A stretch of 64,000 nucleotides of DNA from Rickettsiales bacterium (lineage in GTDB: Bacteria; Pseudomonadota; Alphaproteobacteria; Rs-D84), in the NCBI GenBank assembly GCA_031266915.1, contig JAISAB010000001.1:37994-101993 (forward strand), given 5' to 3'. Under the pieces are notes generated by a model that saw only the letters and a list, made by a program, of their open reading frames with translations, ran no database searches and was not told the origin of the DNA. Positions 18,858-64,000 of the stretch are shown in pieces. The translations under genes were made by a program, and so were the position numbers. The stretch's first letter is position 1. Each line of letters starts with the position of its first letter.

Positions 18858-19784
18858 ATGACTTTTCGCAAATTATATTCTTTGGGAATTAAAATCGCTT
18901 TGGGGACGGGGCTTGTCCTGATTCCAGCATGGTTTGTGCGACCTTTGGACACACCGACAGTTTCGACCAACCATGTATTCAAGCCGGCCTATGACGATAT
19001 TGTGTTCAAAACTGATACAAATTACATCACAGATGAAATTTATAACGATTTGGCTGGCAAAATCCGAAATTATGTTGAAAAACCACGAACAAAACGAACA
19101 TTAGCTTGGGGCATTTCATATCCGTACGCGAACAAGATTGTCATCTATTACAATATAACTAACAGCAAATCCCCAGCGGTCCAGCGCTATGTCGACTATT
19201 CGAACAGCCAAATTCGCCTGACAAAACGCCACGAGTTGGAACACGCCAGAAAATCGGCCTTTGTTCACGGCGTAGAGAACAATTTGCCATTCATACGCGG
19301 AAAAATCGCCATGATGAACGAGGTGATGGCGCCTGCCGGCGAGATAATCGAAGCCTTGGATCATCACGCCGAAACAGGCGAAGTTTATCCGAACGCACCG
19401 AACCAGATAAAATCCGCAGACGCCGCAATCATGCGCATTCTGGGACAAGACAAATTAACTGGTCCCGTTGATTTCAACAACCAACAGATTGCGGACATCG
19501 TCATGGAACACGCGCTGGCGAAATTCTTATTCCATTACAACCACGGCATATACCACTGGACAATCAGCAACGCTAAAAAAACCTTTAAATTCAAAAGCCC
19601 GCCAAAAAATTCCGAATATATGAAATACAGCGGCTATTCCTTTTTTCCGTTATTTAACGACTGGCAGGCACTGTGGGTCTTCGAAACCAAACGCGGAATG
19701 GCCGATTTGTGGAAAAATGCGTCAGACGAACAGAAAAAACGTCTTATCGCCACCACAGATTCCATTGTTAAACTAACACGATAA
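18858..19784 (+). CDS. AT-rich hypothetical membrane-anchored protein with HExxH motif (putative Zn metallopeptidase/effector)
   Basis: 308 aa; N-terminal TM LGIKIALGTGLVLIPAWFV; TKRHELEHARK; ~40% GC versus ~60% in flanking genes. Confidence 0.5.
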   Translation: MTFRKLYSLGIKIALGTGLVLIPAWFVRPLDTPTVSTNHVFKPAYDDIVFKTDTNYITDEIYNDLAGKIRNYVEKPRTKRTLAWGISYPYANKIVIYYNITNSKSPAVQRYVDYSNSQIRLTKRHELEHARKSAFVHGVENNLPFIRGKIAMMNEVMAPAGEIIEALDHHAETGEVYPNAPNQIKSADAAIMRILGQDKLTGPVDFNNQQIADIVMEHALAKFLFHYNHGIYHWTISNAKKTFKFKSPPKNSEYMKYSGYSFFPLFNDWQALWVFETKRGMADLWKNASDEQKKRLIATTDSIVKLTR

Positions 19785-19817
19785 TTCAAACAAATAACTT
19801 CTATTTCATATGAAATA

Positions 19818-20435
19818 TCAAGTGTCGTGACGGCAAAGTGGCCGGACGTTTTCAACCTGGATAACAAAGCCGTCGCCTGTCTGGGATGGCGTCAGCACAT
19901 AGTCAAAATCATAGCGTGTTTTCGCGGCCGCAATTTCAGTCTCTATTTCCCGGCCTTTTAATAGAAAAAGCCGGCATTTTGTAATCGCAACGTAATCCAA
20001 AATTTTCAGCAGGGGTGCGAACGCTCTGGCGGTAAAAATCAATTCTTTACCGGCTTTTTCGACGGTTTTTATAAAATCCTCGACCCGGCCGTGATATATT
20101 GTCAAATTCGGCAAATCCAATTTTTCTTTCAACATTTTTAAAAAGTTCGCCTTTTTGCCGACTGATTCGATACAAACCACGTCCCAGCCGCATACGGCCA
20201 GCACAACACCCGGGAATCCCGCCCCGCTGCCTAAATCCGCAATTCGGACGTTTTCCGGCAAAATGCCGGCCAATTGCATAGAATCGGCGAAATGACGCGA
20301 CTGTATGTCGTTCAAGGTGCTTGGGGCGACCAAATTCATCCTTTGCGACCAATCGCGTAGCAGACGTTCGTATTCGATAAATTTTTCTGGCGTATCCATA
20401 GATATTATTGTAGCATACATAGCGCAGATAAGCAA
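19818..20435 (-). CDS. rsmG: 16S rRNA (guanine527-N7)-methyltransferase RsmG (GidB)
   Basis: IADLGSGAGFPGVVLAV SAM motif and RsmG-length product; start may be Met 20399. Confidence 0.85.
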   Translation of the reverse strand: MLICAMYATIISMDTPEKFIEYERLLRDWSQRMNLVAPSTLNDIQSRHFADSMQLAGILPENVRIADLGSGAGFPGVVLAVCGWDVVCIESVGKKANFLKMLKEKLDLPNLTIYHGRVEDFIKTVEKAGKELIFTARAFAPLLKILDYVAITKCRLFLLKGREIETEIAAAKTRYDFDYVLTPSQTGDGFVIQVENVRPLCRHDT

Positions 20436-20450
20436 AAATTTTAAAACCCA

Positions 20451-22082
20451 TTGCGGAAAACCATGAGAAAATTAGAAGCTCTTTTCGTCTATACCATCCT
20501 GTTTGCCGTCATTATCGTGACCGGTGGCGCCGTTTGGCGCTTTGCCCTGCCCCAACCCAGCACAGAACAGGTTTACGAATATCCGGCGGGCAAATTCGGC
20601 GCATTTTTGGCCGGACAGCACGCTATATACGCGAACGATTTCGACCGGGCCGCACAATTCGCCCGGGACTTGGAAGACACGGACCTGCCGATTGTCCTGA
20701 ATACCGCCATTCTGGCCGATTTTCTAAGCGGAAAAATGCCTGCCAAGGCGGATATGCTGAAAGATGAAAAAGGGGCGGCGGCCCGGCTGATTTACGACGC
20801 GTACCTGGTGCGCCGGAATGATTGGAAGGCCGTTTACGACAGGCATAAAAACGACGATTCCGCACTGACCGCGCCGCTGCGCGTCTGGTCGTCGGTCGCC
20901 GTGGACAAATCCGGCGAAGCACTGAAATTCATCGACAGACTGAAAACGAACGATTCATGGAAGGCCTTTGTCCGCGGCCAGATTTATGCCGAAACCGGCC
21001 GGACAGACGCGGCCGCGCGGGAATTCGGCAGGGTATCTGTCGACTTTATGAACATCAACGATTACCTGTATATCCTTTCGTTTTATAAACACCACGGAAT
21101 GGATGGGGCCGCAGACGCGCTGCGGGCGGATTTCACTGGGCGACCGGGGGGCATGTATATGCTGAACGTCCGTGTTCCCGCCGATTGGAAAAATTATGCC
21201 GGGAACGGCAACGCCCTGGCCTTCAGCCTGATTCAAAACGTTTCCCACACCCAGATAATGATGTATTCCGATTTGTCGCTGCTGTTGCTGCGCTTTGCCG
21301 AATTGGCCGGGGATGACGGGGCAGGGGGGGTGGACGCGTTGCATTACTATCTTGGCCAGTATTTTTACAACAACGGCGGCGATTACGAGAAATATTTCCG
21401 CGCCATTGATTCAAACAGTCCTTTTCATTCCTTCGCGATGATGAAAGTGGCCGAGAAAACTGACGACATCGACGCGCTTCGCGCGGCGGCCGCGGCCAAC
21501 CCGCTGTTCGTGCCCGCGGTGAACAAGCTGGTGTCGAAATACGTTCAAACCGGGGACAAGAAAAAGGCCCTGGCGGTTGTCGACCGCGCCCTGAAAAACG
21601 CCAATCTGACCGAAGGCGGCCGGGCGTTCTTTTTCAAGACGCGCGCCAATATCCATCTGACGTTCGATGACTTGGAATCGGCCCAAGCGGACGTTCGCGC
21701 GGCCGCTGACGCCTTGCCGGCCGATGCCGGAATTCTGGCGATTCAGTCAAAAATATGGTCCACTCAGCGGCGCGAGTTGGATACGGCCTATGAATACGCC
21801 ATCGCGCTGGTGCGCCAAAACCCAACGGACATCGAATCCTGGGACGTGCTGGGCATGGCGGTCTGGGCGCGCGAAGGGGCCGCGGCCAGCCTGGAAGTCA
21901 TCGAAAGAGTAGGGCAAATATCTGAAACCTGTTCGGTTTTATTCGAACACCTGGGGGATTTGCACGTGGAAATGGGAAATAAAAAGCTGGCGCGGGACGC
22001 CTATCTGCGGGCCGTAGATTTATCGGCGGACGGCCTGACGGTCTTGCCCGTGCTGGAAAAGAAAATAAAAAACCTGAAGTAA
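20451..22082 (+). CDS. Conserved hypothetical membrane-anchored repeat (TPR-like) protein
   Basis: 543 aa; N-terminal TM; Ala/Leu-rich helical repeats; no specific family recognised. Confidence 0.45.
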   Translation: MRKTMRKLEALFVYTILFAVIIVTGGAVWRFALPQPSTEQVYEYPAGKFGAFLAGQHAIYANDFDRAAQFARDLEDTDLPIVLNTAILADFLSGKMPAKADMLKDEKGAAARLIYDAYLVRRNDWKAVYDRHKNDDSALTAPLRVWSSVAVDKSGEALKFIDRLKTNDSWKAFVRGQIYAETGRTDAAAREFGRVSVDFMNINDYLYILSFYKHHGMDGAADALRADFTGRPGGMYMLNVRVPADWKNYAGNGNALAFSLIQNVSHTQIMMYSDLSLLLLRFAELAGDDGAGGVDALHYYLGQYFYNNGGDYEKYFRAIDSNSPFHSFAMMKVAEKTDDIDALRAAAAANPLFVPAVNKLVSKYVQTGDKKKALAVVDRALKNANLTEGGRAFFFKTRANIHLTFDDLESAQADVRAAADALPADAGILAIQSKIWSTQRRELDTAYEYAIALVRQNPTDIESWDVLGMAVWAREGAAASLEVIERVGQISETCSVLFEHLGDLHVEMGNKKLARDAYLRAVDLSADGLTVLPVLEKKIKNLK

Positions 22083-22981: not shown

Positions 22982-23004
22982 ATAAAATCAAACAAAAAAA
23001 CACC

Positions 23005-23031
23005 TATGCGCTGCCAGCGCATTTTTTTATC
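23005..23031 (+). terminator. Rho-independent terminator after gpsA
   Basis: atgcgctgccagcgcat hairpin followed by ttttttt. Confidence 0.55.
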
Positions 23032-24251
23032 ACAAAAAAAGTTGCAAAAAAGCCGGGAAGTTAAGCAGCAAAAATTTAACAAAAACAGTAAAATACCGGC
23101 CGTTTCGTATGAAATTGAATAAAAAACACATTGTTAAACATGCTTTTGGGCACATATCGTCGATATTTATGCAAAAAAGCCGGTAAAAACCGTTAAAATC
23201 ACCGGGAAAAGGCCGCAAACTCAGGCGGGCAGGGCGCAAACAATGGAAAAACATTATCCAAATAGGAAAAATACCGGCCTTTTTGATAGTTTTTTAAATT
23301 TCAAACGCCAAATTAAAATGCCGCGGGCCACACGGCGCACGGTGCAAAATGACGGTCAGCGTCGCTGGAAAAATGGAATTTTTGACATCAATGGGTCGCG
23401 TTTTGAAAAAAGCCCGTCCGATAGATTTATCCGGCGCAATTTTGACGAATCGATTTTTTACGTCGAATTATTTGTCGGATTTCACCTCGATTCCTTTTTC
23501 AGCCAATCGAATTCTTGAAAAACGAATCTATTTTCGGACATCCGCGGCATCGGATTTTGCAACTAAAAACGCCGAATTATTTTCATGGCCAAGACATATT
23601 TTTTACACAAAATGTCCGACGAAAATCAGGCATCCGCGACACCGAATTCGGCGAACAAAAAAGTCAAATTATTTTATGACCAAGGCACCGTTTTTCACGT
23701 TGAACATCATGTGCGAAATCGCCCCGATATTTTATATCGCCATGACGTCGAATCATGACGCGACGACGCGCCTTGACGCGGTCAAAACAGGCCATGCGGC
23801 AACCATAAAACCGCATGCCGCTTCGCACCTTGTTTTTCAAGGTCAAAAAATAGCGATTTTCAAACTGGACATGAATTCAAAAAAATGCTTTTTTGTCAAT
23901 TTTAAGCCTCAAACTGGTATTATCGGTTGCAAAAACAACCGGATTTTCGGTCTTGTCAGATTATATTCGTGAAAATACGCGTTTTTTATACAGGAACATA
24001 TTGCCGTATATTTTTGTCGTTTATTTTTAATAAAACCTATTGTTTTTCACATAAATCGATTCAAAAAACACGCCTGTTTATTCAACGCGTGCAACAGAAA
24101 AACACGTGGTCGAAACAGTCGGACCAGATTTGAAAAACCATATCGGAATTTTGACGTCGTATGAGTAAACCGGCGGCAAATTTCTTATCGATGATTTCGT
24201 GCGCCGCTTTGTCTTGTTTTAGAAAAATTTCTGAGGTAACATCATACCTGA

Positions 24252-24370
24252 TATAGTCTATAGTCAGTAGTCATTAGTGAATGTGTCGCGCAACCTGTCC
24301 ACCGAAGCCTTGGCGAAGGTGGAAGCGCGACGACTTTATTGACTATTGACTATATGATTATTGACTTTTC
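24252..24370. repeat. Family A element with central GC hairpin (gtgtcgcgcaacc...ccaccgaagccttggcgaaggtgg...gcgcgac)
   Basis: atagtctatagtcagtagtcattagtgaat ... attgactattgactatatgat. Confidence 0.6.
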
Positions 24371-24410
24371 ATTTGCAATTAAAATTCGGTTTGTTATAAT
24401 CCGCCGGTCC

Positions 24411-24487
24411 GGGTGTGTAGCTCAGTTGGCTAGAGCGTTACGTTGACATCGTAGAGGTCGTTGGTTCGAGCCCAATCACACCCACCA
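24411..24487 (+). tRNA. tRNA-Val (GAC)
   Basis: GGGTGTGTAGCTCAGTTGGCTAGAGCGTTACGTTGACATCGTAGAGGTCGTTGGTTCGAGCCCAATCACACCCACCA; anticodon loop TTGACAT. Confidence 0.8.
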
Positions 24488-24510
24488 ATTTGCAATCCGG
24501 CTTTGGCTTC

Positions 24511-50549: not shown

Positions 50550-51623
50550 ATTGAACAAGAAATGACAAATGTCGCCGTCGTTCATGATGTAATCGCGACC
50601 GACCAGTTTCATTTTGCCGGCCTCTTTGACGGCCGTTTCGCTGCCGAGCGCGATATAGTCCGCCGGCGTTATAACCTCGGCCCGGATAAAGCCCTTTTCG
50701 AAATCAGTATGGATTTTTCCGGCCGCCTGGGGCGCGGTCATGCCGCGGCTGATTGTCCAGGCATGCGCCTCTTTCGGGCCGATTGTATAAAACGTCTGCA
50801 ACCCCAAAGTCTCGTATCCGGTGCGAATCACCTTGTCCAGTCCAGATTCGGACAATCCCAATTCGTCCAGGAACATCCGGCGTTCGGCCACGTCAACAAT
50901 CTGGGAAATTTCCATTTCGATTTTGCCCGATATTACCAGCACCGGCGCGGCGCCGGCGAATTTGTCCGCGACCTGTTTCGAATAGCTGTTGCCGGCCGCA
51001 GCCGCGCTTTCTTCAACGTTGCAGACGTAAATCACCGGCTTTTTTGTTAATAAATTAAAAGGCGTCGCATCGACGGATTGCGCGCGTGCCGGAATTCCGG
51101 CATCCAGGCCCTTTTTCAATTCATTTGCATCGGCCAGCAGTTTCGCGGCATCTTTATCCAAACCGCGGGCCTTTTTTTCCAAGTTCTTAATCTGTTTGTC
51201 CAGGGATTCCAAATCGGCCAGCATCAGTTCGGTTTCGATTGTCTCGATATCCGACAGCGGGTCGATTTTTCCATCCACATGAACGATGTCGTCGTTCTGA
51301 AAACACCGGACTACATGAATTATCGCGTCCGTCGCCAGAATGTTGCCCAAGAATTTGTTGCCTAATCCCTCGCCGGCCGAGGCGCCCCGCACCAAGCCGG
51401 CGATGTCCACGATTTCCAATTGCGTCGGCAGAATTTTGGCCGAGCCCGCGACCCGCGCCAAATCATGTAGCGTCGCATCCGGCACGACGACGCGGCCGGT
51501 GTTCGGCTCGATAGTGCAGAATGGATAATTCTGCGCATCGGCCGCCGCGCTGGCCGTCAGCGCATTAAACAAAGTCGATTTCCCGACATTCGGCAATCCG
51601 ACAATTCCGCAGTTGAATCCCAT
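50544..51623 (-). CDS. ychF: Ribosome-binding ATPase YchF
   Basis: CGIVGLPNVGKSTLFNALT G1 motif; 359 aa; TGS-like C-terminus. Confidence 0.9.
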   Translation of the reverse strand: MGFNCGIVGLPNVGKSTLFNALTASAAADAQNYPFCTIEPNTGRVVVPDATLHDLARVAGSAKILPTQLEIVDIAGLVRGASAGEGLGNKFLGNILATDAIIHVVRCFQNDDIVHVDGKIDPLSDIETIETELMLADLESLDKQIKNLEKKARGLDKDAAKLLADANELKKGLDAGIPARAQSVDATPFNLLTKKPVIYVCNVEESAAAAGNSYSKQVADKFAGAAPVLVISGKIEMEISQIVDVAERRMFLDELGLSESGLDKVIRTGYETLGLQTFYTIGPKEAHAWTISRGMTAPQAAGKIHTDFEKGFIRAEVITPADYIALGSETAVKEAGKMKLVGRDYIMNDGDICHFLFNN

Positions 51624-52332
51624 TCTTTACACCTTGCGATTTATGATTTATAATGCGCCTACTATGAACTACCTTTGGCAAGAATTCAATATAAAAACCT
51701 TTCCGGCAGAAACCATCGTTTTCAAAGACGGTGTTTTTATGCCGGAATTATCGACCCTGGAATCGTGCATTATCGATAAAAAGTACGATTTGCCCGTCCA
51801 TATTATTTATGCGGGCGAAATTGCCGGCGAAAACAACATAAATATAGAAATCAATATCCCCGGCCAAAAGGTGTTTTTAACGGCAAAAATTCAAAATAAT
51901 TTACCGGCCTTTTTGAACATTTTTGTTAAAAACACCGGGAAAAAATCTTTTTTTCGCGGCCAGGTTTTGGCCCAGAATTATTCCGAATTGAACATAAGCG
52001 CCCATGGGCACCATTTGGCGCCGGAAACCGGTATAATCCTGTCGACCAAAGTCGTCGCCCATTCGGGCAGCGTTTCAAAACTGACGGGCGCGGCGGAAAT
52101 TGAAAAAAATTGCACAGATTGCGATTCCGATATTGGATTCAGTGCGCTGGCGGCGCCGAACGCCCGAATTGAATTTACCCCGAAACAGCTGATAAGGTCG
52201 ACCCCGGCCGCGGCCGGGCATTCCGCGTCCTTGTACCGCGGCAGCCGGCACCAGATTGAATATCTGCGCGAATCGGGCTTGTCCGGGGCTGAGGTAAAAG
52301 CTGTGCTGGAAGAGGCGTTTTTATTCTGTTAA
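51613..52332 (+). CDS. Hypothetical protein, weak resemblance to the SufD C-terminal beta-helix (truncated?)
   Basis: HHLAPETGIILSTKVVAHSGSVSKLTGAAEI...ARIEFTPKQLIRS...LYRGSRHQIEYLRESGLSGAEVKAVLEEAFL loosely follows the SufB/SufD C-terminal pattern; only ~220 aa. Confidence 0.3.
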   Translation: MNPILYTLRFMIYNAPTMNYLWQEFNIKTFPAETIVFKDGVFMPELSTLESCIIDKKYDLPVHIIYAGEIAGENNINIEINIPGQKVFLTAKIQNNLPAFLNIFVKNTGKKSFFRGQVLAQNYSELNISAHGHHLAPETGIILSTKVVAHSGSVSKLTGAAEIEKNCTDCDSDIGFSALAAPNARIEFTPKQLIRSTPAAAGHSASLYRGSRHQIEYLRESGLSGAEVKAVLEEAFLFC

Positions 52333-52410
52333 CAATTAACAGAGCAGAGATAACAGTTAACAAATAATAAAGAATAGAGAATAAAGAATAAATAACATTA
52401 TCACCAGTGT

Positions 52411-52745
52411 GTCATTGCGAGGGGCGTCAGCCCCGCGGCAATCCAGTAAAACAAATTCGTGCGCCCAATGGGCGCACTCTCTTTTTTTCTCCCCCCTCTT
52501 GGGGGGCAAATGCAAAATAATCACAAATTAGGTCTTTTGGGGTCGAATGACACACTTATATCTTGGAGAGAAATAACAACCCCCAAAGGTAAAAACCGCG
52601 CTTTGCAAATTAAAGGCGGTTGGAGGTTAGTTACTACTATATAGAATAGTGCGGTGTTTTTGGACAAGTCCTTATGGCACCGACCCTCCAACCGATGGTT
52701 GGAGCGGTTTAACGTCAGCGCTGACGCTATATAGAAGGGTAACTA
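52411..52745. repeat. Family F structured element (long copy, with nested cccccctcttgggggg segment)
   Basis: gtcattgcg...ggtcttttggggtcgaatgacac...aaaaaccgcgctttgcaaattaaaggcggttggaggtt...ccctccaaccgatggttggagcggtttaacgtcagcgctgacgc. Confidence 0.6.
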
Positions 52746-52880
52746 CACCCCCGTCGCCGGACGAGTATATCATCCGCCGACCTAGGTATTATACACGAAT
52801 ATATTTGAAAAATCTACAAATTAAAAAATTAATGTTTCTTTTATGCCGGTATGACGCCAAATGAGAAGAATGTCGAAAAA

Positions 52881-52945
52881 GGTGGGGCAACCTTGGGACA
52901 AGGTTGCCTGAAAAAGGTGACCTTGTCCCCAAGGTCACCCCACCC
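52881..52945. repeat. Family G element (inverted relative to 6318-6408)
   Basis: ggtggggcaaccttgggacaaggttgcc...ggtgaccttgtccccaaggtcaccccacc. Confidence 0.55.
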
Positions 52946-53532
52946 AATATTTCGGATTACGATTCACGAAAAAAATCGCGCCCGTTGGGCGCGATACTTT
53001 AAATACAAGGGATTCCCATCTTCATGGGAATTTCCTTACTTTTTCTTAAAACCCTGTTTCGCCTTGAATTTGGGATTGTCTGGGTCAATAAGAATAACTT
53101 GTTTGCCGCGGCGAATCTGTTTTACATTGCCGCGCTTTTTCCAAGCCTTCAAAGAACTTAAGAACTTCATGTCATATTCCTTTTTGCCATGCGATTATAA
53201 CCGCTTTTTATAAGAAATCAACCAAAACTTCTAATAATAGTTTAATATTCGCTATACATTCAACCGTTATATGAAATTTCAATTTCTTATTAATATATTG
53301 TTGTTGTTTTTATACAGGTTAAAATTGTTAAAAACGCTTTTAATTTTTTTATCAACTGATTTTCAACAAAAAAAGCCGGTGTTTTCGCGCCTGTTTATAA
53401 AAATGTTAAAAAATATCGCCGGTAATCAACAGTTGAAAAACATATAAGTTTCCGGCTTTTTCAACAAATTTTTCAGATTTGTTTTTATGCTTGTTGAAAA
53501 ATGTTGAAATTGTTATAATTAACCCGTACCGA

Positions 53533-53844
53533 ATGGAGACGAGAGAATTGCGGCAACAAGTCCTGAAAGCTTTGGCGAACCCATCGCGCATATTTTATGT
53601 GCCCTATACGCTGGCGGTTTTAAATTTCGTGCTGCAGTTTCTGGTATTCATCGTCATTTTCATAGGCGGTCTGATAATTTCCGGCGGCGGCGTGGGAATA
53701 AACCCTCTGGCGTTTTTAATATCCGTGATGGCGGTTCATTCGATTTTGGCCGGCTTTTCCAAACGAGAGCCTCAGCTGGCGCAGATTATCGCGGCCAAAT
53801 TGCGCCTATTTAAATCGCGCGCCCCGAACAAGTTGACGGCATGA
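53533..53844 (+). CDS. virB3: Type IV secretion system protein VirB3-like
   Basis: ~104 aa; IFYVPYTLAVLNFVLQFLVFIVIF ... VMAVHSILAGFSKREPQLAQI fits the VirB3 pattern; immediately upstream of virB4. Confidence 0.6.
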   Translation: METRELRQQVLKALANPSRIFYVPYTLAVLNFVLQFLVFIVIFIGGLIISGGGVGINPLAFLISVMAVHSILAGFSKREPQLAQIIAAKLRLFKSRAPNKLTA

Positions 53845-53845
53845 T

Positions 53846-56254
53846 ATGAATCAATTCTTGGAATATTTTATCACTGGGGGATTTTCGATGACATCGGTCA
53901 TTCTGGCCATGGCCGTCGTTTTCGTGTTCATTATCCTGATGTTGTACGTTCCTACAATCGCGCTGTGGATTTTCCCAAAGTTCGGATACAAGAAATATTC
54001 TCAATACCTGCCGTTCGCGACGGTGTTCACGGACAATTCGATTCAGCTGACCGACGGGTCCTTGATAAGGGCTTATAAAATCGACGGTGTTCAAACCAGC
54101 ATGCAGGACGAGAAAACCCGCAACCAATTCCTGGATTTGCGCGCACAGCTGTTCAACCAAATCAACGACCCCGGCGTTACCCTGCGCTTTTACACAATTC
54201 GCGATTTCGCGGCCGATAAGACTGATTACGAATTCGACGGGCCGACGCTGCAGAAAATTTACGACAAGTGGAACAGCCAGGGGTTGAAGATTTTCACGAA
54301 CAGCTATTATGTGGTTCTGTCGGTTGGCGGGTCGAACGCCAGAGAAAAGCTGAACCAGTACGGCAACTATATCGAATCCATACTGGCCGCGTACGGACCC
54401 AGCGTTCTGGACAACGCGCGCCCGGAAAATATGGCGAAATTGTTCGCCCGAATCCTATCGCCGATCACCAAGCCGCGGCCTGCACGGTGCGACCAAAGAA
54501 TCGCGGAAACAATAACCGTCGACGATGTGGAATTTCTGGGCAACGGACTGATCCGGTATTCCAGCGGCGCCAAAAAATCGTACGCCGCGACCGTATCGTT
54601 CAAGGTGTCCCCGGATTATCTGGACGAGGAATTCTTCAACACCGTGTCCACCATCCAATGCGAGATGATAACCATGAACGGATTCCGCATTATGGGCGCG
54701 GCCGATATAGGCAACGTCATCCGCCAACGGCGCGCCACGTCCGATAATAACGACGACGCGGCCGAGGAACAAATCCGCGACGCGCAATCCGCGATGGACG
54801 AGAACGCGGCCGGCACGCAGACGCTGCTGAACTATTACCCGCTGTTCGTTCTGTTCGGCGACACGGTCGAATCTCTGCAGGACGGCGTCGACGAATTCAA
54901 AAAGATTTCGGCGGCTTTCGGCATATCGCCGGTTGTGGAAAACTTTGCGTCCAAGGTTTCGTGGTTCTCGCAGATTCCTGGATTCGACGTGTTTCCGCGC
55001 AGTTTCAAAATGCTGTCGAAAACAGCCGCGGTCAGCATACCAATGTCATCGACGCCCAAAGGCGTCGCGAATTCAGACTGGGGTCCGGGCCCGCTGGTCG
55101 TATTTCCGACAGCCCAGGGAACGCCGTATATGTTCCAATTCCACGTATCCGCCGCGCCCGCGGCCGTGGGCCATACGCTGACGGTCGGCCCGACGGGCGG
55201 CGGAAAAACGACGCTGTTCTCGTTCCTGATAGCGCAATCGCTGCGACATCCGAAATTAAAGGCTTTCTTTTTCGACCGGAACAAGGGCGCCGAAATCTTC
55301 ACGCTGTCGGTCGGCGGAAAATACGTGACCATGCAGAACAAGGAAAAATCCGCCGGCATGGGATTCGAGGCGCATTTGAATCCACTGAAGATGGAGGACA
55401 GTGTCGCCAACCGCGCGTTCCTGCGCCGATGGCTCGCGATGATTTCGGGGCAGTCCGACACGCGTTCCGCGGACGAAATCGCACGCGCGGTATCCGTCAA
55501 TTTCGATTACTTGGGCGACAAGGACCGGATGTTGAAAAGCCTATGGGAAAGCTGCTTTTCGTCCGAGGGCAATATGCGCGGCGCGCTGAAAAAATGGGTC
55601 GACCCGCTGCAATACGGCGAAATATTCAATGAAACCGCCGATACGCTGGATTTGCAGTCGCGTCTGACCACGTTCGATTTTACCGAAATTCTGCAGGACC
55701 AGACATTGTCGCCGGCCGTGATTTCATACATCCTGCACCGGATAAACAACACGACCGTGTCGGGCGGAAATCCGTCGCTGATTATGATTGACGAAACGGC
55801 GCCGATGCTGGAAAACAAGATGTTCCGCGACAACTTTATCGTCGGCCTGCAAGAGGGCCGCAAAAACCGCCAGGCCTATATGGTGGCCTTTCAGCGCGCG
55901 AACGTGCTGGACAAGCTGGGTATCGGCGACGTGGTGCGCGGCCAGGCGCAGACGGTTTTATTCTTCCGCAATCCGGCGGCCGACGCGAACGATTACCAGT
56001 ACTGGAATCTCAATCCCTTGGAAATGGCGTTCATCCAGGGCAAGGCTTATCCGAACCTGAAGCGCGCGGTGCTGCTCTCGCGCCCGGTAAATGGCGAATC
56101 AGTGATTCTGAATACGGAGCTCGGCGGATTGGGCAGTTTGCTGCGCCTGTTCGAATCCGGCCGCTCCAGCGTGCTTTTGGCCGAAGAGCTGTACAGGCAG
56201 TACGGGAATAATTTCGTCGGCGAATACTTGCGCAAACAGGGCGCGGTGGAATAA
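53846..56254 (+). CDS. virB4: Type IV secretion system ATPase VirB4
   Basis: 802 aa; Walker A TVGPTGGGKTTLFSFL; Walker B LIMIDETAPML; N-terminal TM region. Confidence 0.9.
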   Translation: MNQFLEYFITGGFSMTSVILAMAVVFVFIILMLYVPTIALWIFPKFGYKKYSQYLPFATVFTDNSIQLTDGSLIRAYKIDGVQTSMQDEKTRNQFLDLRAQLFNQINDPGVTLRFYTIRDFAADKTDYEFDGPTLQKIYDKWNSQGLKIFTNSYYVVLSVGGSNAREKLNQYGNYIESILAAYGPSVLDNARPENMAKLFARILSPITKPRPARCDQRIAETITVDDVEFLGNGLIRYSSGAKKSYAATVSFKVSPDYLDEEFFNTVSTIQCEMITMNGFRIMGAADIGNVIRQRRATSDNNDDAAEEQIRDAQSAMDENAAGTQTLLNYYPLFVLFGDTVESLQDGVDEFKKISAAFGISPVVENFASKVSWFSQIPGFDVFPRSFKMLSKTAAVSIPMSSTPKGVANSDWGPGPLVVFPTAQGTPYMFQFHVSAAPAAVGHTLTVGPTGGGKTTLFSFLIAQSLRHPKLKAFFFDRNKGAEIFTLSVGGKYVTMQNKEKSAGMGFEAHLNPLKMEDSVANRAFLRRWLAMISGQSDTRSADEIARAVSVNFDYLGDKDRMLKSLWESCFSSEGNMRGALKKWVDPLQYGEIFNETADTLDLQSRLTTFDFTEILQDQTLSPAVISYILHRINNTTVSGGNPSLIMIDETAPMLENKMFRDNFIVGLQEGRKNRQAYMVAFQRANVLDKLGIGDVVRGQAQTVLFFRNPAADANDYQYWNLNPLEMAFIQGKAYPNLKRAVLLSRPVNGESVILNTELGGLGSLLRLFESGRSSVLLAEELYRQYGNNFVGEYLRKQGAVE

Positions 56255-56940
56255 TGTTCAAGGTTCAAAGTTCAAAGTTCAAAGAATTGTCGCGCCGGCG
56301 ATTGCCTGTATTGAAGTTCAATCTTTTATATATATATCTTATCTCGTATCTCGTATCTGGTATCTCATACGCGGACGATTGTCTGCCTTATAAATTAAAT
56401 CCTGAAATCGAGGTATTGACGCCGTCCTGGCACAAGGAGGTTGTCCAGCCGCTGAAACCTATGGAATTGTTGGACGGGCTGCATGGAAACGTAGTGGCCA
56501 CATTGGATAACGATTATGAGGTAACGGGCGACACGACGTCCGTCGAGGACGGTTTCTGCGTTTCGCTGAAATCGGTATCGGCGACCATCGGGTACAGCGG
56601 ATTCCAGGTCGGGATAGATTCGCGCCATGCGCCGGAATCATGCGTATACAACGCGATTTTAACGCACGAGGACGAACATATACGGGCCTATCTGTCGGTG
56701 ATAGACGATTACAGTGACGATATTCGGACGGCGGTCCGCGCGGCGGCGAACTCGGTCATGCCGATTTTCGTCCGAACCGGGACAGAGGCAGAATCGGCCC
56801 TTGATTCGCTGCACGACAGCCTGCAAAGCCATCCGGAATTGATTCTGATGAACCAGCGCATCCAGGCCGAACAGGAAATTAGAAACAAGCGCGTGGACCA
56901 GGTCGAAACCGGCAGTCATCTTAAGATGTGTATGGAATAA
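56254..56940 (+). CDS. Hypothetical secreted protein with HExxH motif (LTHEDEHIRAY) downstream of virB4
   Basis: 228 aa; the N-terminal 40 codons are built from family K (gttcaaggttcaaagttcaaa) and tatctcgtatct repeats; the true start may lie downstream. Confidence 0.4.
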   Translation: MFKVQSSKFKELSRRRLPVLKFNLLYIYLISYLVSGISYADDCLPYKLNPEIEVLTPSWHKEVVQPLKPMELLDGLHGNVVATLDNDYEVTGDTTSVEDGFCVSLKSVSATIGYSGFQVGIDSRHAPESCVYNAILTHEDEHIRAYLSVIDDYSDDIRTAVRAAANSVMPIFVRTGTEAESALDSLHDSLQSHPELILMNQRIQAEQEIRNKRVDQVETGSHLKMCME

Positions 56941-57061
56941 ATATTATATTATGTATAAATGGTCAGATTCTTTAGAGAATAACAACAATGTATTCAACAG
57001 TTGGTTGAATGTTTTTTAGAAATAGGTTCTTGTAACAATATGAATAAAAATGAGCCGTTTT

Positions 57062-60061
57062 TTATCCAATTTCTTTCATTATGTTATCGGTTTCCAACAA
57101 GATAGCGATTATCTTTTGGTAGTGAATAACGTCTTCAAATGACAATGTGCGGCCACGGCGGTCTTTCAACCACTTTTGCGCCGGCTGATAGCCGCCGATA
57201 AAAAATTCCCATGCAGTATCCGGCACATTATCAAAATATTGGGTTTTGTTTATATAAACTCGGTTGCCATCTCGTACAACCTTTTCAACAGTGTCATCTC
57301 CGGATATAGGATAGGTACAGGTTGTCGCGGGGACAAATTCCATCAGGTGCAGCTTTCGCAGGCGTTCGCCCAGTTTTGCCAGTCGTTCAAATTCTTTGAC
57401 ATCTTTCGGATATGGAATCTTTGGAAAATCTATTTTTAGAAATTCACGATATTTTTCCCGATATGACGGACTGTGCAGCACCGCATAAATATAATCAAAT
57501 ATTTCAACAGCATCTGCATCACGCCCGATGGATTTAGATATTTGATTTACTATACGCTGGTCCAAGTTTGATTCCGGCCGTTCGCCAAAGTATGTATATA
57601 ACGGAAATATAACATATGAAGCAAAAGGCTGAGATGATATTTCAGATAATTTGTCAGTTATAAAAGATATAAAATGTTTTTTAGCGCCAAATTGACGAGT
57701 CGCTATTAAAGCAATGTTTGGCTTTAACATATGTTGCATGACGCTATATCTGTGTCTGACAACTTTATCCAAATCATAATTTATCCATCTGGTATCAAAT
57801 GGTCTGTAAGAAATTTTTTGGTTAAACTTGGTATCAAATGCATTAAAAGAAATCAATTCAGAATCATTATGTGTTTTTATACCGGTCGTGTTTATTTGAA
57901 ACAAATCTGTCAAAGAAAACCCATTATCATACACGTTTCTTTCTGATAAGTCTTTGTCCACAAAAAAGCAATACGGTTCAATCGGTTTTAGCTCTTTATA
58001 TTTTGTTGAGTCTAAATCATTCTTGCTTAAAAAGTCGTATTTCTCATTGCGTTTTCCATAAATATCATTATAAAAAACCTTGCCTAGAGTTTTCTTTTTA
58101 TCCAATGTTTTTATAAATATATTGATGGACACACCCTGCATAATATCAAACACGTTTTCATCCTTGCCGCCGTCCGGTATGGTTTCGCCAATATTTGAAT
58201 TCCCGTGTAAATTTAATATATAAATTTTATCGAATGTTTCCATCAGCGATTTGCGCATCTGACGATGTATCACGCCGTCAAGAAAACTATTGTTTGTGAT
58301 AAACGCCAGTATTCCGGAACCGTTCTTTTCTATAAAGTTCTGACCCAGCGCAATAAACTTTATATAATCATCCGAAAGCGGCTGAATATTTCTCTCGTTT
58401 AAGTCTTCTTTGTATTTTTTAATCAAATGCTTGGCATAATCGTTATTGTTCGAGCTGCTGACGCTATACGGCGGATTTCCTATCACGCACATCACCGGAG
58501 TATCTTGTTTGATAGTATTCGCCTCGCGCGCTTCGTTGGACAGCCACTGGGCAAAGAAAAGCGTCTGTGTGTTCGGGTCGGCTTCTTCAAGGCTGTTGGT
58601 CAGATATACCCCCAAGCGTTGAGTTGAGTTTTTTATCACGGCATTCTTGCCGATATCGGCCAATTTATTATCAAACAAATCATCTTGCCGGAACATCTTT
58701 TCATTAATTGGCGCATCGTCCTGAATATATCCGGTTTCGCGTAATACCAAGTCTAACTTCAAATGTGCCATGGCATAACTGGCCATCAATAATTCAAACC
58801 CATGAATGCGCGGCAACAAATGCTCATCAACGTACTTTGTCCAAAGCCCGGTATTGTTTTCAAAACTCTTGTGTATAAAGCGAATTGTTTCGGCCAAAAA
58901 AGTTCCGGTTCCGGTCGCGGGGTCAAGAACCTGAACGCGATGAAATTCTTTGTCTATCGGCTTATTCGTGCCTTGGGTGTTTGTCTTCTTGATAATTTTT
59001 GAATTATCGGCCAATCCCAAAGGCAATTCAAAGTCTGTCTTTAATATATTGTCAACCGCGCGGACTATATAATCAACCACAGGTTGCGGGGTATAGAAAA
59101 CGCCACGGCTTTTCCGCAAAGCCGGATTGTATTCAGCAAGGAACGTCTCATAGAAATGTATAATAGGGTCGCTTGTTTTTGTCTTGCGTCCAAAGTCGCG
59201 CATAATATCCGCAACATCTGTGTACGAGAAAATCTCGGCAAGGTTATCAACCACCAAAACAATTCGTTCATCTATTTCCGTGCCGGCGATATATCCGAAT
59301 AAATTACGCAAAAATGGATTTGTTTTCGGTATAAGGCTTGCGGCTTCAACGCGTGTAAAAGTGCTTAGCGACTTATCATGTAAACGAGCCGCAAACATTC
59401 CATAGGCTATAGTTTGCGCATACACGTCGGCAAATTCGCTGGTGGTTATATCATGTATCAGCATTTCTTGGAAGACTGTCATTTGCTCGCGCAGTGATGA
59501 ATTACTCTTACCGTCTTTTTCCAAAGCCTCATTGATAACGTTGGCAACCAGTTTTGCTTTGCCGGCCATCAATTCGGCCAGTCTTGACGCAGATTTAATG
59601 GTTGTGGTTTTCTTGATATAAAAATCACGTAGCAAATTTTCCAAGAAATCATAGTGTTCTGGTATCGGCGTAATTGTTTTGCTGTCAAAATCGGCAATTC
59701 TTACGCGTTTAAAAACAATGCCGCTTTTATAAAAGATAAAATCAAAGTAATCCGTATAAATTAAATTATCAAATCCGTTGCGATAGCGTTCCAACTGGTC
59801 TTTTTCATACCCGTGCAGGTTATCAAGGCGAGACACGCCGATACCTTTAGTTTCAATATATCCAACAGCAACGTCTTTAAGTTTTATTACGAAATCCGGT
59901 GCACCGAAAGTCCCGCGAGTCGGCTCGTTTATAGCAATTATGTCCGGGTTTAAAGATTCCAGCAATTTCTTCAGATGCGGACGATATGTATGTTCATTCG
60001 CTTCGCCTGTTTTCCATTCCCGTTCAATCGCAGAGATATAGTTTGTAAATAACTGTGACAT
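57062..60061 (-). CDS. Type IIG restriction-modification enzyme (MmeI-like: N-terminal PD-ExK nuclease fused to N6-adenine methyltransferase and TRD)
   Basis: 999 aa; PDFVIKL...GYIETKGIG aligns with MmeI D..WPGILLIEMKSRG; FYTPQPVVDYIV resembles AHYTSE; GNPPY catalytic motif; AT-rich. Confidence 0.75.
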   Translation of the reverse strand: MSQLFTNYISAIEREWKTGEANEHTYRPHLKKLLESLNPDIIAINEPTRGTFGAPDFVIKLKDVAVGYIETKGIGVSRLDNLHGYEKDQLERYRNGFDNLIYTDYFDFIFYKSGIVFKRVRIADFDSKTITPIPEHYDFLENLLRDFYIKKTTTIKSASRLAELMAGKAKLVANVINEALEKDGKSNSSLREQMTVFQEMLIHDITTSEFADVYAQTIAYGMFAARLHDKSLSTFTRVEAASLIPKTNPFLRNLFGYIAGTEIDERIVLVVDNLAEIFSYTDVADIMRDFGRKTKTSDPIIHFYETFLAEYNPALRKSRGVFYTPQPVVDYIVRAVDNILKTDFELPLGLADNSKIIKKTNTQGTNKPIDKEFHRVQVLDPATGTGTFLAETIRFIHKSFENNTGLWTKYVDEHLLPRIHGFELLMASYAMAHLKLDLVLRETGYIQDDAPINEKMFRQDDLFDNKLADIGKNAVIKNSTQRLGVYLTNSLEEADPNTQTLFFAQWLSNEAREANTIKQDTPVMCVIGNPPYSVSSSNNNDYAKHLIKKYKEDLNERNIQPLSDDYIKFIALGQNFIEKNGSGILAFITNNSFLDGVIHRQMRKSLMETFDKIYILNLHGNSNIGETIPDGGKDENVFDIMQGVSINIFIKTLDKKKTLGKVFYNDIYGKRNEKYDFLSKNDLDSTKYKELKPIEPYCFFVDKDLSERNVYDNGFSLTDLFQINTTGIKTHNDSELISFNAFDTKFNQKISYRPFDTRWINYDLDKVVRHRYSVMQHMLKPNIALIATRQFGAKKHFISFITDKLSEISSQPFASYVIFPLYTYFGERPESNLDQRIVNQISKSIGRDADAVEIFDYIYAVLHSPSYREKYREFLKIDFPKIPYPKDVKEFERLAKLGERLRKLHLMEFVPATTCTYPISGDDTVEKVVRDGNRVYINKTQYFDNVPDTAWEFFIGGYQPAQKWLKDRRGRTLSFEDVIHYQKIIAILLETDNIMKEIG

Positions 60062-60848
60062 TCTTGCGTCCTATTTTATATTATTCCTAGTATAGCACTA
60101 ATAAATGGCATAAAACAAGTTTTTATAGGGTTTAAAGAATATCAGATTTTTCGCTTATCATCTTTTTTTGCGGAATTAAAGGCGTGTCAGACTATTGTTG
60201 CCGCGATATAATCCGGCGATGTAAACATTTCTAGATGCCATCTGGAACGAAAGTGCAAAAATGAGTTTTCCATAAAGCATAATTTTGAAGTGGATGCAGA
60301 GCCATCAATCAACGAACTAAACGAATCCAAAGGCCTTTTTAAAGCATTGGAAGATTATAAAATAAAAGTATCTAAAGATAACCCAGTTTTTTTAGTATCC
60401 TGCGCTTGAATTTGCAAAATTAAAAAACTCTCTATAATTACATAGAACTAAATTTGGTTGTTCGCAATAGACAAAGTTCTAACCAACCATGTGTACGAGT
60501 TGGTAGATTTTATAAACCAGTAAAATCCCTTTCGGGAACTGTTATCTATCGAGCACAATGAACTAATATCTATAGCCACCAGAAACCGTAATTAATAGCA
60601 ATAATCTACCTCAAACATCCAATTTTTACCCAAACCTTGATAATAACACCAATTTTCACTCCCAAGGCTTTCAGACCTTTTGTTTCGTTTATAACCTATT
60701 AATATTTCTTAGTAATCTTAAATAACAATTGATTTTATGCAGATTGTAGGATATTGTAAAATTAATAAAGCGCGGTGGCAAATAACCAAAATTGGTAGCA
60801 AAAAGCACCCGTGGTAGCAAATAGGTAGAAAAAAAATGAAAAGGTAAT

Positions 60849-61646
60849 GTGTCAGAAAAGGCAATGAAAATGGAATATAAATTAAAAAATAGATATAAGG
60901 CCGATTTAGAAAAACAACTAAATAGATTATGTTGTCATACCATGGAGGCGGTGGTTGATTTAGAGATGTTTTTTTATCCTTTGCGAGATCCCAGCGTACA
61001 TAATGATAGCTTTGCATTTAAACATTCTTTAGATATATTTTTTGAGAGAGCTCTCTTGTCTATAAGAAAGCTCGTAGAGCCGTCACAGAAAAATGACAAA
61101 GCAACTTTGAATTCAATAGGCAAGATAATCTTGCAGCCTGATTTTTACTTGATCCCAGATGAGGATTCAGATTGGACAGATGTTTTAAGAACAGTGGGAA
61201 GAGCAGAAGAAGTTATAGACCTTGCACAAAGGCATGCAGAGAAGTTTTTTCAAAAAAACTATGGGGATGCATTGCAAAAATTATCCAAAAATATTATGGC
61301 CTTTTTAAACTCAGAACAAGCGTTGCGAATAAAAGACTATAGAGATTATTCTTGTCACATATTATTGAACAAGCCAAAAAGCGTTTCATTTGAAATTTAT
61401 GATAATATGTCCAATACTCTAAACAAAACAGTCGATTTTTTATCAAGATTACATGATTTTGTCTTTGATGAAAAAGCAGACTTCTTTAAACAAATAGCCA
61501 TTTTAGCCCCCGTGCTTGCTGAAAATTACTGGAAAACCATCAACGAAGGGGCAAAATTGGTTGAAAATAAAAAACAAGAAAGAGAAACCTTAGCAGAGAT
61601 TTTAAAGAGAGCATCTAATAATTCTGGGGTAAGAAATAACCAATAA
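60849..61646 (+). CDS. Hypothetical island protein with candidate HEPN-type Rx4H motif (RDYSCH)
   Basis: 265 aa, predicted all-helical; preceded by TGGYAGCAAA direct repeats at 60770-60830; no family confidently recognised. Confidence 0.4.
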   Translation: MSEKAMKMEYKLKNRYKADLEKQLNRLCCHTMEAVVDLEMFFYPLRDPSVHNDSFAFKHSLDIFFERALLSIRKLVEPSQKNDKATLNSIGKIILQPDFYLIPDEDSDWTDVLRTVGRAEEVIDLAQRHAEKFFQKNYGDALQKLSKNIMAFLNSEQALRIKDYRDYSCHILLNKPKSVSFEIYDNMSNTLNKTVDFLSRLHDFVFDEKADFFKQIAILAPVLAENYWKTINEGAKLVENKKQERETLAEILKRASNNSGVRNNQ

Positions 61647-61668
61647 AATCAACTTTACCGAACGTGTA

Positions 61669-62803
61669 TTGGAAAATATGCCAGTTCCGACTGATAAACA
61701 GACTGTATATTACGACAGTGGCAGTAAAGATGGCCTGTGTGTCATCGTGACATATGGTGGGGCAAAGACTTATTATGCTTACATGAAGTTCCAAGGTGTC
61801 CCAAAACGTATCAAAATTGGTCGTATGGGACAAATTAAACTGATCAAAGCACGCGAAATTGCACATAGCCTTAAAGAACATCAACCCTTGGCTAAGATCC
61901 CAGCGCAAAGCGTAAAGAAGATTTAAAAGACATAACATTAAAGCAGTTTTACGAAACGGCTTATAAACCGGAGTATTCTTTGTTGTACAAAAAGTCGGGG
62001 TCAGTGGCAAATGATGACAGTTTGTTTAATCACAGGCTGAAAGATTTTTAAAACAGGCGGTTATTAAGCATAAAATCGGAGGAGATTGAAAAACTACATA
62101 ATAAAACAAAGAAAGAGTTATCTCCATACACAGCAAATCGCGTTTTGTCATTGATAAAACATGTTTATGTAATTGCTATAAAGCACGGCCACATCCGCAG
62201 AGATGCAAATCCGGCAGAATTAATCCGTAAATTTCCAGAGGCTAGCCGCGATCGATTCTTAAAATCAGATGAAATGAAACGATTTTTTGATGCGCTTACG
62301 GTCGAAGATAACCCAGTGTTTAAAAACTATATATTATTGTCGTTGTTTACAGGTCAACGCCGCAATAATGTGTTGACGATGCGCTGGGATAACATAGACC
62401 TTAAGAATGTTTTATTTACTTTCCTGACTCCAAGAATGGCGAACCGCCGCAAGTTCCCATGACAACACAGGTAAAAGAACTGCTGGGATCAATGGAACAC
62501 GATTCTGACAGCGAATGGGTATTGCCAAGCAAAAAGTCCGCTAGCGGACACCTTGAAGACCCAAAACGTCCATGGCAAGATCTGTTGGCGCGCGCCGGTA
62601 TAGAAAACCTGCGCCTACATGATTTACGGCGCACACAGGGCAGCTATCAGGCTATTACTGGTTCCAGCTTACATATCATCGGAAAGTCCCTAGGACATAA
62701 ATCGCCCAGCGCAACAGAGTTGTATTCTAGACTAACCACCGATCCAATCCGCGAATCTATGCAACGCGCTACTGATAAAATGTTAGAGTTTACGGAAGGC
62801 TAA
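61669..62803 (+). pseudogene. Frameshifted/interrupted P4-type tyrosine integrase
   Basis: Three collinear fragments: N-terminal arm-binding (DUF4102-like, 61669-61926), core-binding (62145-62462), catalytic (62459-62803; HDLRRT ... ELYSRL). The 61927-62144 gap translates as integrase in another frame. Confidence 0.7.
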
Positions 62804-63010
62804 CAATTATTAAGGCAGGCTATATTATGTATTAAATTACTCGAAGTAGTTGATATCTGATAAGAAGATGATAAACTTCATGCAAAAATGAAGGAATGGC
62901 AAATGGCAGTTCGTATTGATATAAATAATAACAGCGAGGCTTTGGACTATGATTTAAGGAAGTATTTTCAATCTGGTAAGCTCAACTTTCTAATTGGATA
63001 AGGCGCATCT

Positions 63011-63967
63011 ATGCCGGCCATATCAGCAGGTGGCAATATAGAAAATGAATTAAAAGAGTTGGCAAGCGACCCTGAGCAGAGCAATGAATACGAGAAAAAA
63101 CTCTATGGATTTTTGGCTGGGGTTCAGAAAGCCCAAAACGATATTATAGCGGGAAGTTTTATTGATGGCGCAGGAGCAAACAATACGGGTAATACGCTAT
63201 CAAATTATGAGAAATTTATAACTACCATCGTATCACTTTTACTGGCCAGGAATAACCCTATCATTCTAAAGCGAATGAACATATTTTCGACAAATTATGA
63301 TATGTTTATTGAGAAGGCTGTTGAAGAAGTTTCGCCACTACATGTAAATGACGGTTTTGTTGGGAGTTGTAGAATTGATGCGAAATTTCCATTCTCGACG
63401 CACACATTTTCTAATTGTATGCATAATGCCGGAGATTATTACAAAACATATATACCGACAATCAACATAATAAAATTACACGGTTCATTGTCATGGCAAT
63501 CGAATGAGGTGGGTAAAATTTTCTTTGGTAATAATTCGTTACCAGAACTTTCGAATGATGACATTAATGATTTAGACACATTGAAAGAACGTAATAAAAA
63601 GTACAGCAATATAATTATTCCAACTTTGAAAAAATTTGAAGATACTGTCCTTATGCAAACATATTACGATTTACTACGGATATATTCAAACGAGCTAGAT
63701 AAAGAGAATAGCGTTATGTTTGTATTTGGTTTTTCATTCAATGATGAACGCATTTTAGAGATCACAAAACGGGCATTAAAAAACACTACTCTTGAAGTCA
63801 TCATCTTTGCTTATGGCGCTGCTGAAGTTGCAGATTTTGAAAGAAAGTTTACTGGGTTTCAAAATGTGAAAATTGTTTATGATTCAGCAAATGATGCAAA
63901 TATTAGTTTTGAGCGGTTGAACTCAATCTTTTCAGATATAAAACCAGCAGAAGGCCAAGATGTCTAA
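63011..63967 (+). CDS. SIR2-like (SIR2_2 family) protein, probable NAD+-depleting defense effector
   Basis: 318 aa; DGAGAN, IFSTNYDMFIE, IIKLHGSLSW, FVFGFSFNDERI match ThsA/DSR-type SIR2 motifs (GAGxS, TTNYD..LE, KLHGS, hFIGYSxxD). Confidence 0.65.
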   Translation: MPAISAGGNIENELKELASDPEQSNEYEKKLYGFLAGVQKAQNDIIAGSFIDGAGANNTGNTLSNYEKFITTIVSLLLARNNPIILKRMNIFSTNYDMFIEKAVEEVSPLHVNDGFVGSCRIDAKFPFSTHTFSNCMHNAGDYYKTYIPTINIIKLHGSLSWQSNEVGKIFFGNNSLPELSNDDINDLDTLKERNKKYSNIIIPTLKKFEDTVLMQTYYDLLRIYSNELDKENSVMFVFGFSFNDERILEITKRALKNTTLEVIIFAYGAAEVADFERKFTGFQNVKIVYDSANDANISFERLNSIFSDIKPAEGQDV

Positions 63968-64000
63968 TTTGGAAAAAATTGTTCAGCAAAACACAATCCT
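63960..64000 (+). CDS. Partial gene (MSNLEKIVQQNTI...) overlapping the SIR2 stop by 8 nt; truncated by the window edge
   Basis: ATG at 63960 in the +1 frame relative to the SIR2 stop; translational coupling implied. Confidence 0.3.
   Translation, partial: MSNLEKIVQQNTI

Follow-up and report, generated by a model that had tools for sequence, protein, structure and literature searches.

The stretch of DNA analysed here, hereafter the window, comprises 64,000 nucleotides (nt) of contig JAISAB010000001.1 of a Rickettsiales bacterium (GenBank assembly GCA_031266915.1), and its last 7 kb form an AT-rich segment (56,942–64,000) that carries putative phage-defence genes and extends beyond the end of the window. 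An uninterrupted gene for a 999-amino-acid (aa) protein, predicted to be a Type IIG/IIL restriction-modification (R-M) enzyme, lies on the minus strand close to the left end of the segment (57,062–60,061). It is followed on the plus strand by a non-coding leader of about 140 nt (60,709–60,848), a gene for an all-helical 265-aa protein with similarity to divergent AbiU2-like HEPN proteins (60,849–61,646), a pseudogene of a P4-type tyrosine integrase (61,636–62,803), a SIR2 gene with an in-frame stop codon (62,903–63,967) and the start of a HerA gene (63,960–64,000). The open reading frames (ORFs) that an earlier sequence-only reading had listed for this DNA were found where it had placed them.

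The segment was delineated by its composition and by its divergence from L011, a JGI contig of a related organism. The guanine-plus-cytosine (GC) content is 52.5% over positions 1–56,941 and 37.2% over positions 56,942–64,000; in 100-nt windows it falls from 0.53–0.61 to 0.25–0.30 between 56,800 and 56,950, and no 1-kb window of the AT-rich segment exceeds 44%. The abrupt GC drop near 56.9 kb that had been taken as the start of a 7-kb segment is therefore sharp and lies at 56,941/56,942. L011 matches positions 56,145–56,941 at 88% nucleotide identity and diverges from 56,942 onwards, and its alignment ends one base past the stop codon of a 228-aa gene located 3′ of virB4, so that this stop codon marks the left junction. 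Past the same stop codon, L011 (798–1152) has a hairpin and then the C-terminus of a serine recombinase, encoded on the minus strand and reaching the contig end. Thus, at the site 3′ of virB4 and the 228-aa gene, two close relatives carry different mobile DNA, and the left boundary is a true breakpoint. Synteny and similar GC in close relatives would mean that the segment is ancestral; because L011 does not share it at the left junction, we conclude that defence genes reached this uncultured Rickettsiales bacterium on a horizontally acquired segment, which entered the chromosome immediately 3′ of the stop codon of the 228-aa gene.

The 999-aa ORF matches the PADLOC model REase_MTase_IIG with an E-value of 8.7e-288 and the Pfam families Type_ISP_C (8.1e-67, residues 738–995), Eco57I (2.6e-11), N6_Mtase (1.7e-10) and MmeI_Mtase (5e-8). 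A PD-ExK nuclease motif is found near the N-terminus, with PD at residues 55–56 and ETK at residues 70–72, while the methyltransferase (MTase) motifs DPATGTGTF (S-adenosylmethionine-binding motif I) and NPPY (motif IV) are found at residues 380 and 529, respectively. Nuclease and MTase are fused in one polypeptide, and a C-terminal target-recognition domain is part of the same chain. The closest matches among sequences of the PDB are DrdV (7lo5, 5.4e-36), LlaBIII (2.3e-30) and LlaGI (5.6e-30). From these motifs and domains, the protein is predicted to consist of an N-terminal PD-ExK nuclease, a gamma-class N6-adenine MTase and a C-terminal target-recognition domain. Like DrdV, its best PDB match (1,029 aa), and other Type IIL enzymes of the MmeI family, it is a single chain of about 1,000 aa with PD-ExK, an NPPY MTase and a C-terminal target-recognition domain. 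By analogy with DrdV and MmeI, one polypeptide would methylate the recognition sites of the host and cut unmodified incoming DNA away from the site. The earlier description as an MmeI-like Type IIG enzyme with PD-ExK and NPPY is correct with regard to the type and the motifs, but the similarity to MmeI itself is weak (5e-8) and confined to the MTase domain, and the target-recognition domain of the window enzyme is of the Type_ISP_C kind. Assignment to Type ISP was considered and rejected. Although the MTase and C-terminal specificity domains of LlaGI and LlaBIII are homologous to those of the window enzyme, these Type ISP proteins are 1,400–1,600 aa long as opposed to 999 aa, and their matches begin only at residue 484 and span residues 484–756 only; moreover, no helicase or ATPase domain was found in the 999-aa protein by Pfam searches. 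Without an ATPase motor, the protein is therefore assigned to Type IIG/IIL and not to the translocating Type ISP enzymes. The approximately 650 nt between the start of this gene and the leader (60,062–60,708) contain no ORF longer than 47 aa and no Rfam match; they may contain the Type IIG promoter, the remains of a gene, or a decayed target or attachment (att) site.

The 265-aa protein belongs to a rare family: HMMER, run exhaustively against 1.84 billion representatives, returned only 11 relatives, and no match to Pfam, PADLOC or NCBIfam was found for the window protein at normal thresholds. Its Rx4H motif, which the sequence-only reading had pointed out, proved to be the most conserved feature of the family. 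The motif reads RDYSCH at residues 165–170, and the family pattern is R-D/N-x3-H. In an alignment of the 12 sequences, R165 is the single invariant residue, and H170, E77, S155 and W228 are at least 90% conserved. An Ex3K motif, shared by most family members, is found at residues 77–81, where it reads EPSQK. In the AF2 model (mean predicted local distance difference test score, pLDDT, 81.6), the Rx4H motif ends the helix formed by residues 156–170 and is followed by a loop. Catalytic HEPN domains are characterized by Rx4-6H at a helix end, a polar residue after the arginine and an upstream Ex3[KR] (PMC3710099). The family is linked to Pfam HEPN_AbiU2 (PF18734) by its relatives P0141, P0131 and P0137, which score 28.9, 25.7 and 21.5 bits, respectively, against a cut-off of 26.8; as P0141 in turn matches the profile of the 265-aa family at 4.5e-43, the link of the window protein to HEPN_AbiU2 is transitive, via the family profile. 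On this sequence evidence, the 265-aa protein is filed as a divergent member of the AbiU2-like HEPN proteins and is predicted to be a metal-independent ribonuclease (RNase). It shares with AbiU2 an all-helical structure and the conserved Ex3K and R-[D/N]-x3-H motifs, and its gene adjoins an R-M gene, while AbiU2 has been reported in R-M operons (Anantharaman et al. 2013, PMC3710099). It differs from AbiU2 in being very divergent, in a 35-aa insertion that it has in common only with relative P0130, and in the partner of its gene, which is an integrase and not AbiU1 or a Sel1-repeat protein.

The integrase gene was recognized from Pfam matches to fragments (Arm-DNA-bind_3 and Phage_integrase), three-frame translation and tblastn with the intact 393-aa integrase of L015, a 3.5-kb contig that provides the context of HEPN relative P0135. 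Residues 2–390 of the L015 protein align at 43–56% identity in three frames of the window: frame +1 over 61,636–61,911, frame +3 over 61,890–62,459 and frame +2 over 62,411–62,800. As the sequence-only reading had noted, the integrase is broken into three frames, by two frameshifts (near 61,880–61,895 and 62,411–62,430), to which at least one in-frame stop codon is added (TAA at 62,049; a second TAA at 61,893 may also lie on the reading path), and no canonical start codon is present at the position of the start of the L015 orthologue. The R...HxxR...Y core is still discernible in the fragments as TGQRR, HDLRR and LYSRL. The integrase is dead, and the element can therefore no longer excise.

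The integrase-homologous frame and the end of the HEPN gene share about 11 nt, and in L015 the corresponding overlap between the HEPN gene and the integrase start is also 11 nt. The two overlaps are alike and the HEPN-integrase gene pair is therefore conserved; the HEPN gene is thus coupled to the integrase gene and is not loose cargo. L015 is the only other known copy of this gene pair. Further loci were sought by a motif scan of viral contigs, which gave no match, by a search of viral contigs with the L015 integrase, which found none, and by tblastn searches of plasmids and phages with the HEPN protein, also with no match, whereas the L015 integrase matched plasmid sequences at no more than 34% identity; the alignment of the HEPN family is too divergent for pattern scanning. 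Downstream of its integrase, L015 carries further cargo, namely an AAA_14/DUF4143 gene, upstream of which a direct repeat of about 35 nt (GGATAATCTAAA...TTTAAATTGGTC) is found at L015 2059–2165.

The conservation extends to the leader of the HEPN-integrase operon. L015 52–184 aligns to positions 60,709–60,850 of the window, including a 26-nt block (TGGTAGCAAATAGGTAG, exact, then an A-run) that is identical at 25 positions; the HEPN proteins encoded downstream of the two leaders are only 22% identical. The window leader contains the repeat units CGGTGGCAAA (60,773–82), TGGTAGCAAA (60,793–802 and 60,812–21) and TAGGTAGAAA (60,822–31). The TGGYAGCAAA direct repeats that had been described ahead of the HEPN gene are therefore real and belong to a leader conserved in L015, but only two copies of TGGTAGCAAA are exact, the other two being degenerate, and the counts of TGGTAGCAAA alone are not significant. 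Because the leader is conserved in L015, we regard the repeats as a genuine cis element, with putative roles as arm-type binding sites of the integrase and/or as an operator. Scans for promoters and terminators gave nothing above background, and a laxer Rfam scan of 60,050–60,900 returned a chance match to Histone3 only. Abutting the leader in L015 is the truncated 3′ part of a tRNA-Asn(GUU) gene (L015 1–45, minus strand), which runs off the contig end. A truncated tRNA gene in this position is characteristic of the att junctions of elements that target tRNA genes.

Overall, we propose, with a probability of about 75%, that the segment is a composite acquired defence island of known system types, partly decayed and most likely made up of two adjacent pieces. 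Piece 1 (about 56.94–60.70 kb) would hold one uninterrupted gene, that of the Type IIG/IIL enzyme, as the left neighbour of an integrative element. Piece 2 (from about 60.70 kb to beyond the window) would be the integrase-proximal end of that small element, in which the leader, the HEPN gene, the integrase and SIR2-HerA follow one another rightwards as one immobilised unit. The end of the element is placed near 60.70 kb because the leader is homologous to that of L015, where the tRNA-Asn fragment abuts it. The sequence-only reading had suggested a degraded integrative element that left its defence cargo behind. The dead integrase and the acquired defence DNA agree with this suggestion, but the segment is probably not one element and the SIR2 gene is itself broken.

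Several points weigh against our proposal. The two-piece model draws on one homologous locus, the 3.5-kb L015, and the terminus placed near 60.70 kb is devoid of a tRNA fragment, as a search of the window for remnants of tRNA-Asn gave none. To the right, the segment ends outside the window; neither an att pair nor an empty site was seen, and the L011 junction is likewise not an empty site but other mobile DNA. The window protein by itself matches HEPN_AbiU2 with an E-value of only 0.093, and fold searches with it return generic helical bundles only. Finally, a pair of 15-nt repeats suggests a different boundary.

The repeats in question are imperfect direct repeats on the plus strand and candidate att sites: the left copy (TATATTATGTATAAA, 56,945–56,959) begins 3 nt inside the point of divergence from L011, and the right copy (TATATTATGTATTAA, 62,821–62,835) lies 18 nt after the integrase stop codon. 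The earlier statement that no flanking tRNA gene or att repeat is visible in the window needs to be divided accordingly. No tRNA gene and no Rfam match was found in the AT-rich segment, and all four tRNA genes of the window are located at or before 32.8 kb, but a candidate direct repeat is present. If the repeats were functional, a single 5.9-kb element consisting of the Type IIG gene, the HEPN gene and, at its right end, the integrase would be bounded by the two copies, and SIR2-HerA would be a separate island. In Markov simulations, a 15-nt repeat with no more than one mismatch and a copy within 25 nt of the boundary arises in only about 3% of cases, which together with the positions of the two copies speaks for such an element. 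However, chance alone would produce about 4.5 such repeats in this AT-rich 7 kb, in which eight were observed, the match stops at 15 nt, and L011 does not contain the repeat as a single copy. Furthermore, in L015 the tRNA-derived att adjoins the leader, ahead of the HEPN-integrase pair, and cargo follows the integrase. We therefore consider a single 5.9-kb element unlikely and retain the two-piece model.

Compared with P4-type islands that target tRNA genes, the element of piece 2 shares the Arm-DNA-bind_3 N-terminal domain and the tyrosine recombinase core, and in L015 the intact integrase is about 140 nt from the tRNA-Asn 3′ fragment, with direct repeats between them. The window differs from such islands in that it has no tRNA fragment, its junction follows a protein-coding gene and its integrase is a pseudogene. 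The genes of P4 itself (psu, sid, delta and alpha) are absent from the window element.

The coupling of the HEPN gene to an integrase raises the question of what the 265-aa protein does. In L016 (932–2213), relative P0134 is encoded 23 nt downstream of a Resolvase/HTH_7 serine recombinase gene, and in L013 (1–2013) an ORF runs into the start of the gene of relative P0131, after which a 309-aa MerR_1-domain protein is encoded. Because the L016 member follows a serine recombinase, the family travels with recombinase modules in general. A conserved partner or antitoxin was sought by tblastn of the L010 and L013 neighbours against the segment, with no match. The protein might thus assist or regulate the recombinase module, acting for example on integrase expression or the direction of excision, and have nothing of HEPN but a similar helical scaffold. 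The overlap with the integrase start in both known HEPN-integrase loci, the neighbourhoods in L016 and L013, and the lack of both a conserved antitoxin-like partner and a PADLOC match for the 265-aa protein are in keeping with this possibility. Abi-type genes, however, often adjoin integrases as cargo. In addition, one family member scores above the Pfam HEPN_AbiU2 cut-off, and conservation is highest at R165, H170 and E77, which fits a catalytic HEPN site (PMC3710099). A purely regulatory role is hence doubtful, and we favour a predicted RNase that would act in abortive infection or in maintenance of the element.

A related and still less probable idea is that the HEPN gene, the overlapping integrase and the leader with its repeats make up a functional unit that has not been described before, with a HEPN RNase that works with or controls a recombinase. 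If so, the HEPN protein could stabilise the element after integration or gate integrase expression at the RNA level, and the 265-aa protein would not be ordinary defence cargo.

The downstream SIR2 gene begins at 62,903 and not at 63,011, and its reading frame is interrupted by TAA at 63,000–63,002. This stop is codon 33 and replaces the serine of FLIGSG, so that the sequence reads FLIG-stop-GAS. With X at the stop codon, the translation matches positions 1–341 of the 347 positions of the PADLOC SIR2 model PDLC04080 (5.5e-92), and the Pfam match to SIR2_2 has an E-value of 6.5e-11. Both the SIR2 and the Type IIG assignments are thus borne out by significant matches of hidden Markov models (Pfam and PADLOC). 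Scans of genome and metagenome contigs with SIR2 gave relatives at 41–43% identity only. All seven SIR2 homologues that were compared (353 aa, 41–43% identity) contain FLIGSGCS, while the catalytic asparagine (TNYD) and histidine (LHGS) of the window gene remain downstream of its stop codon. The HerA gene overlaps the SIR2 stop codon by 8 nt (ATGTCTAA, 63,960–63,967). Its first 184 codons are readable in L001/L002, to the position equivalent to window position 64,511 (a 9.6-kb Logan contig that adds 511 nt), and their translation ends in the Walker A motif FGNTGSGKSN and matches PADLOC PDLC04097 (3.7e-56) and NCBIfam HerA_antiphage (4.7e-11). A HerA frame of 631–656 aa follows SIR2 in six of the seven homologue loci; in the remaining one (L007), HerA starts and is cut by the contig end. 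A separate search for HerA returned short fragments only and no full-length version of the window protein. The locus is therefore SIR2-HerA, with the SIR2 gene immediately followed by HerA. The reported SIR2_2-domain gene that overlaps a downstream partner is confirmed in its domain and its overlap, the partner being HerA, but it does not survive as intact defence cargo, as the nonsense codon is in the glycine-rich loop that binds nicotinamide adenine dinucleotide (NAD).

To the nonsense codon the SIR2 protein has lost its first beta-strand and the Gly-rich NAD-binding loop. In Staphylococcus aureus Sir2-HerA, deletion of Sir2 residues 1–34 abolished the NADase activity of the complex (PMC11514289), and for this reason the 318-aa remnant is probably inactive and SIR2-HerA disabled. 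The window locus shares with the characterized SIR2-HerA anti-phage system (PMC11472057, PMC11514289) a SIR2 protein of the 353-aa class and an overlapping HerA gene whose product has an N-terminal barrel and a Walker A motif; it differs in the nonsense codon at residue 33, and approximately 70% of HerA lies beyond the sequence read. Function might be preserved by re-initiation at Met37 (ATG at 63,011) or by read-through of the TAA, given that past the stop a 318-aa ORF continues without further interruption and retains the catalytic Asn and His, that NCBI annotates it as a SIR2 family protein and that the first 184 codons of HerA are intact. We regard this as very unlikely, because all seven homologues start 36 residues earlier and keep FLIGSGCS, the PADLOC SIR2 model covers the N-terminus from position 1, loss of residues 1–34 removed NADase activity in S. 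aureus Sir2-HerA, and no read-through signal was found.

In our model, SIR2-HerA would have been a NAD+-depleting abortive-infection pair and cargo of the integrative element. The systems of the island would have decayed to different extents: the integrase is dead and SIR2 is truncated, while the Type IIG and HEPN genes are uninterrupted and have the best chance of all the parts of still working. All of these enzymatic activities are predicted from protein families and motifs.

The native flank to the left of the segment (53,479–56,940, plus strand) consists of virB3 (53,479–53,844), virB4 (53,846–56,254) and the 228-aa gene (56,254–56,940), of which virB3 and virB4 match Pfam VirB3 and CagE_TrbE_VirB, respectively; the segment is thus adjacent to the virB3-virB4 locus, as had been reported. 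The flank genes are common to relatives L011 (88% nucleotide identity) and L012 (73%). The product of the 228-aa gene has no match in Pfam, NCBIfam or PADLOC; an N-terminal hydrophobic segment and HEDEH (HExxH) at residues 138–142 (56,665–56,679) suggest a small secreted or membrane zinc protease. The genes ileS, pheS/pheT, mreC, a PBP2-type transpeptidase gene, rodA, topA, dnaG and ychF precede virB3/virB4, and the window is chromosomal; a megablast search of 50–64 kb against plasmids gave no match. Just upstream of virB3, within 51,613–53,500, lies a 239-aa ORF that aligns with SUFBD_core in its C-terminal part alone (3.7e-8) and is thus a possible gene remnant; it is followed by a stretch of 31–38% GC with short ORFs without matches. 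The equivalent region of L012 contains a ribosomal L36 gene. In a chromosome that otherwise has 52% GC, 1-kb windows below 45% GC are also found at 1,001–2,000, 14,001–15,000, 18,501–20,500 and 23,001–24,500.

The source is a metagenome-assembled genome, in which the sequence belongs to a contig of 105,578 bp that encodes MDR1337482–MDR1337489 and bears locus tags from LBJ73_00445 onward, and other short low-GC stretches occur in the window. A native origin of the low-GC segment is nevertheless scarcely credible, and so is a chimera created by assembly or binning, as L002, assembled separately by Logan from run SRR14710922, is 100% identical across 54,897–64,000, including the junction and all lesions, homology to L011 ends at the very breakpoint, and the segment holds an integrase and defence genes whose nearest retrieved relatives are in unrelated bacteria (for example Thermotogaceae, 41%).

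The island is fairly ordinary in that it comprises known system types, and the rare HEPN branch is a small lead that leaves current understanding unchanged. What the locus documents is phage-defence DNA that arrived beside type IV secretion genes in a host-associated Rickettsiales chromosome and then decayed, with mobility lost first and the NAD-depleting effector next. It also calls for caution in annotation, as a defence-finding program would report SIR2-HerA here despite the nonsense codon in the NAD-binding loop. The fresh item is a very rare HEPN branch: its members are linked with recombinase genes, and a conserved leader accompanies the pairing with an integrase.

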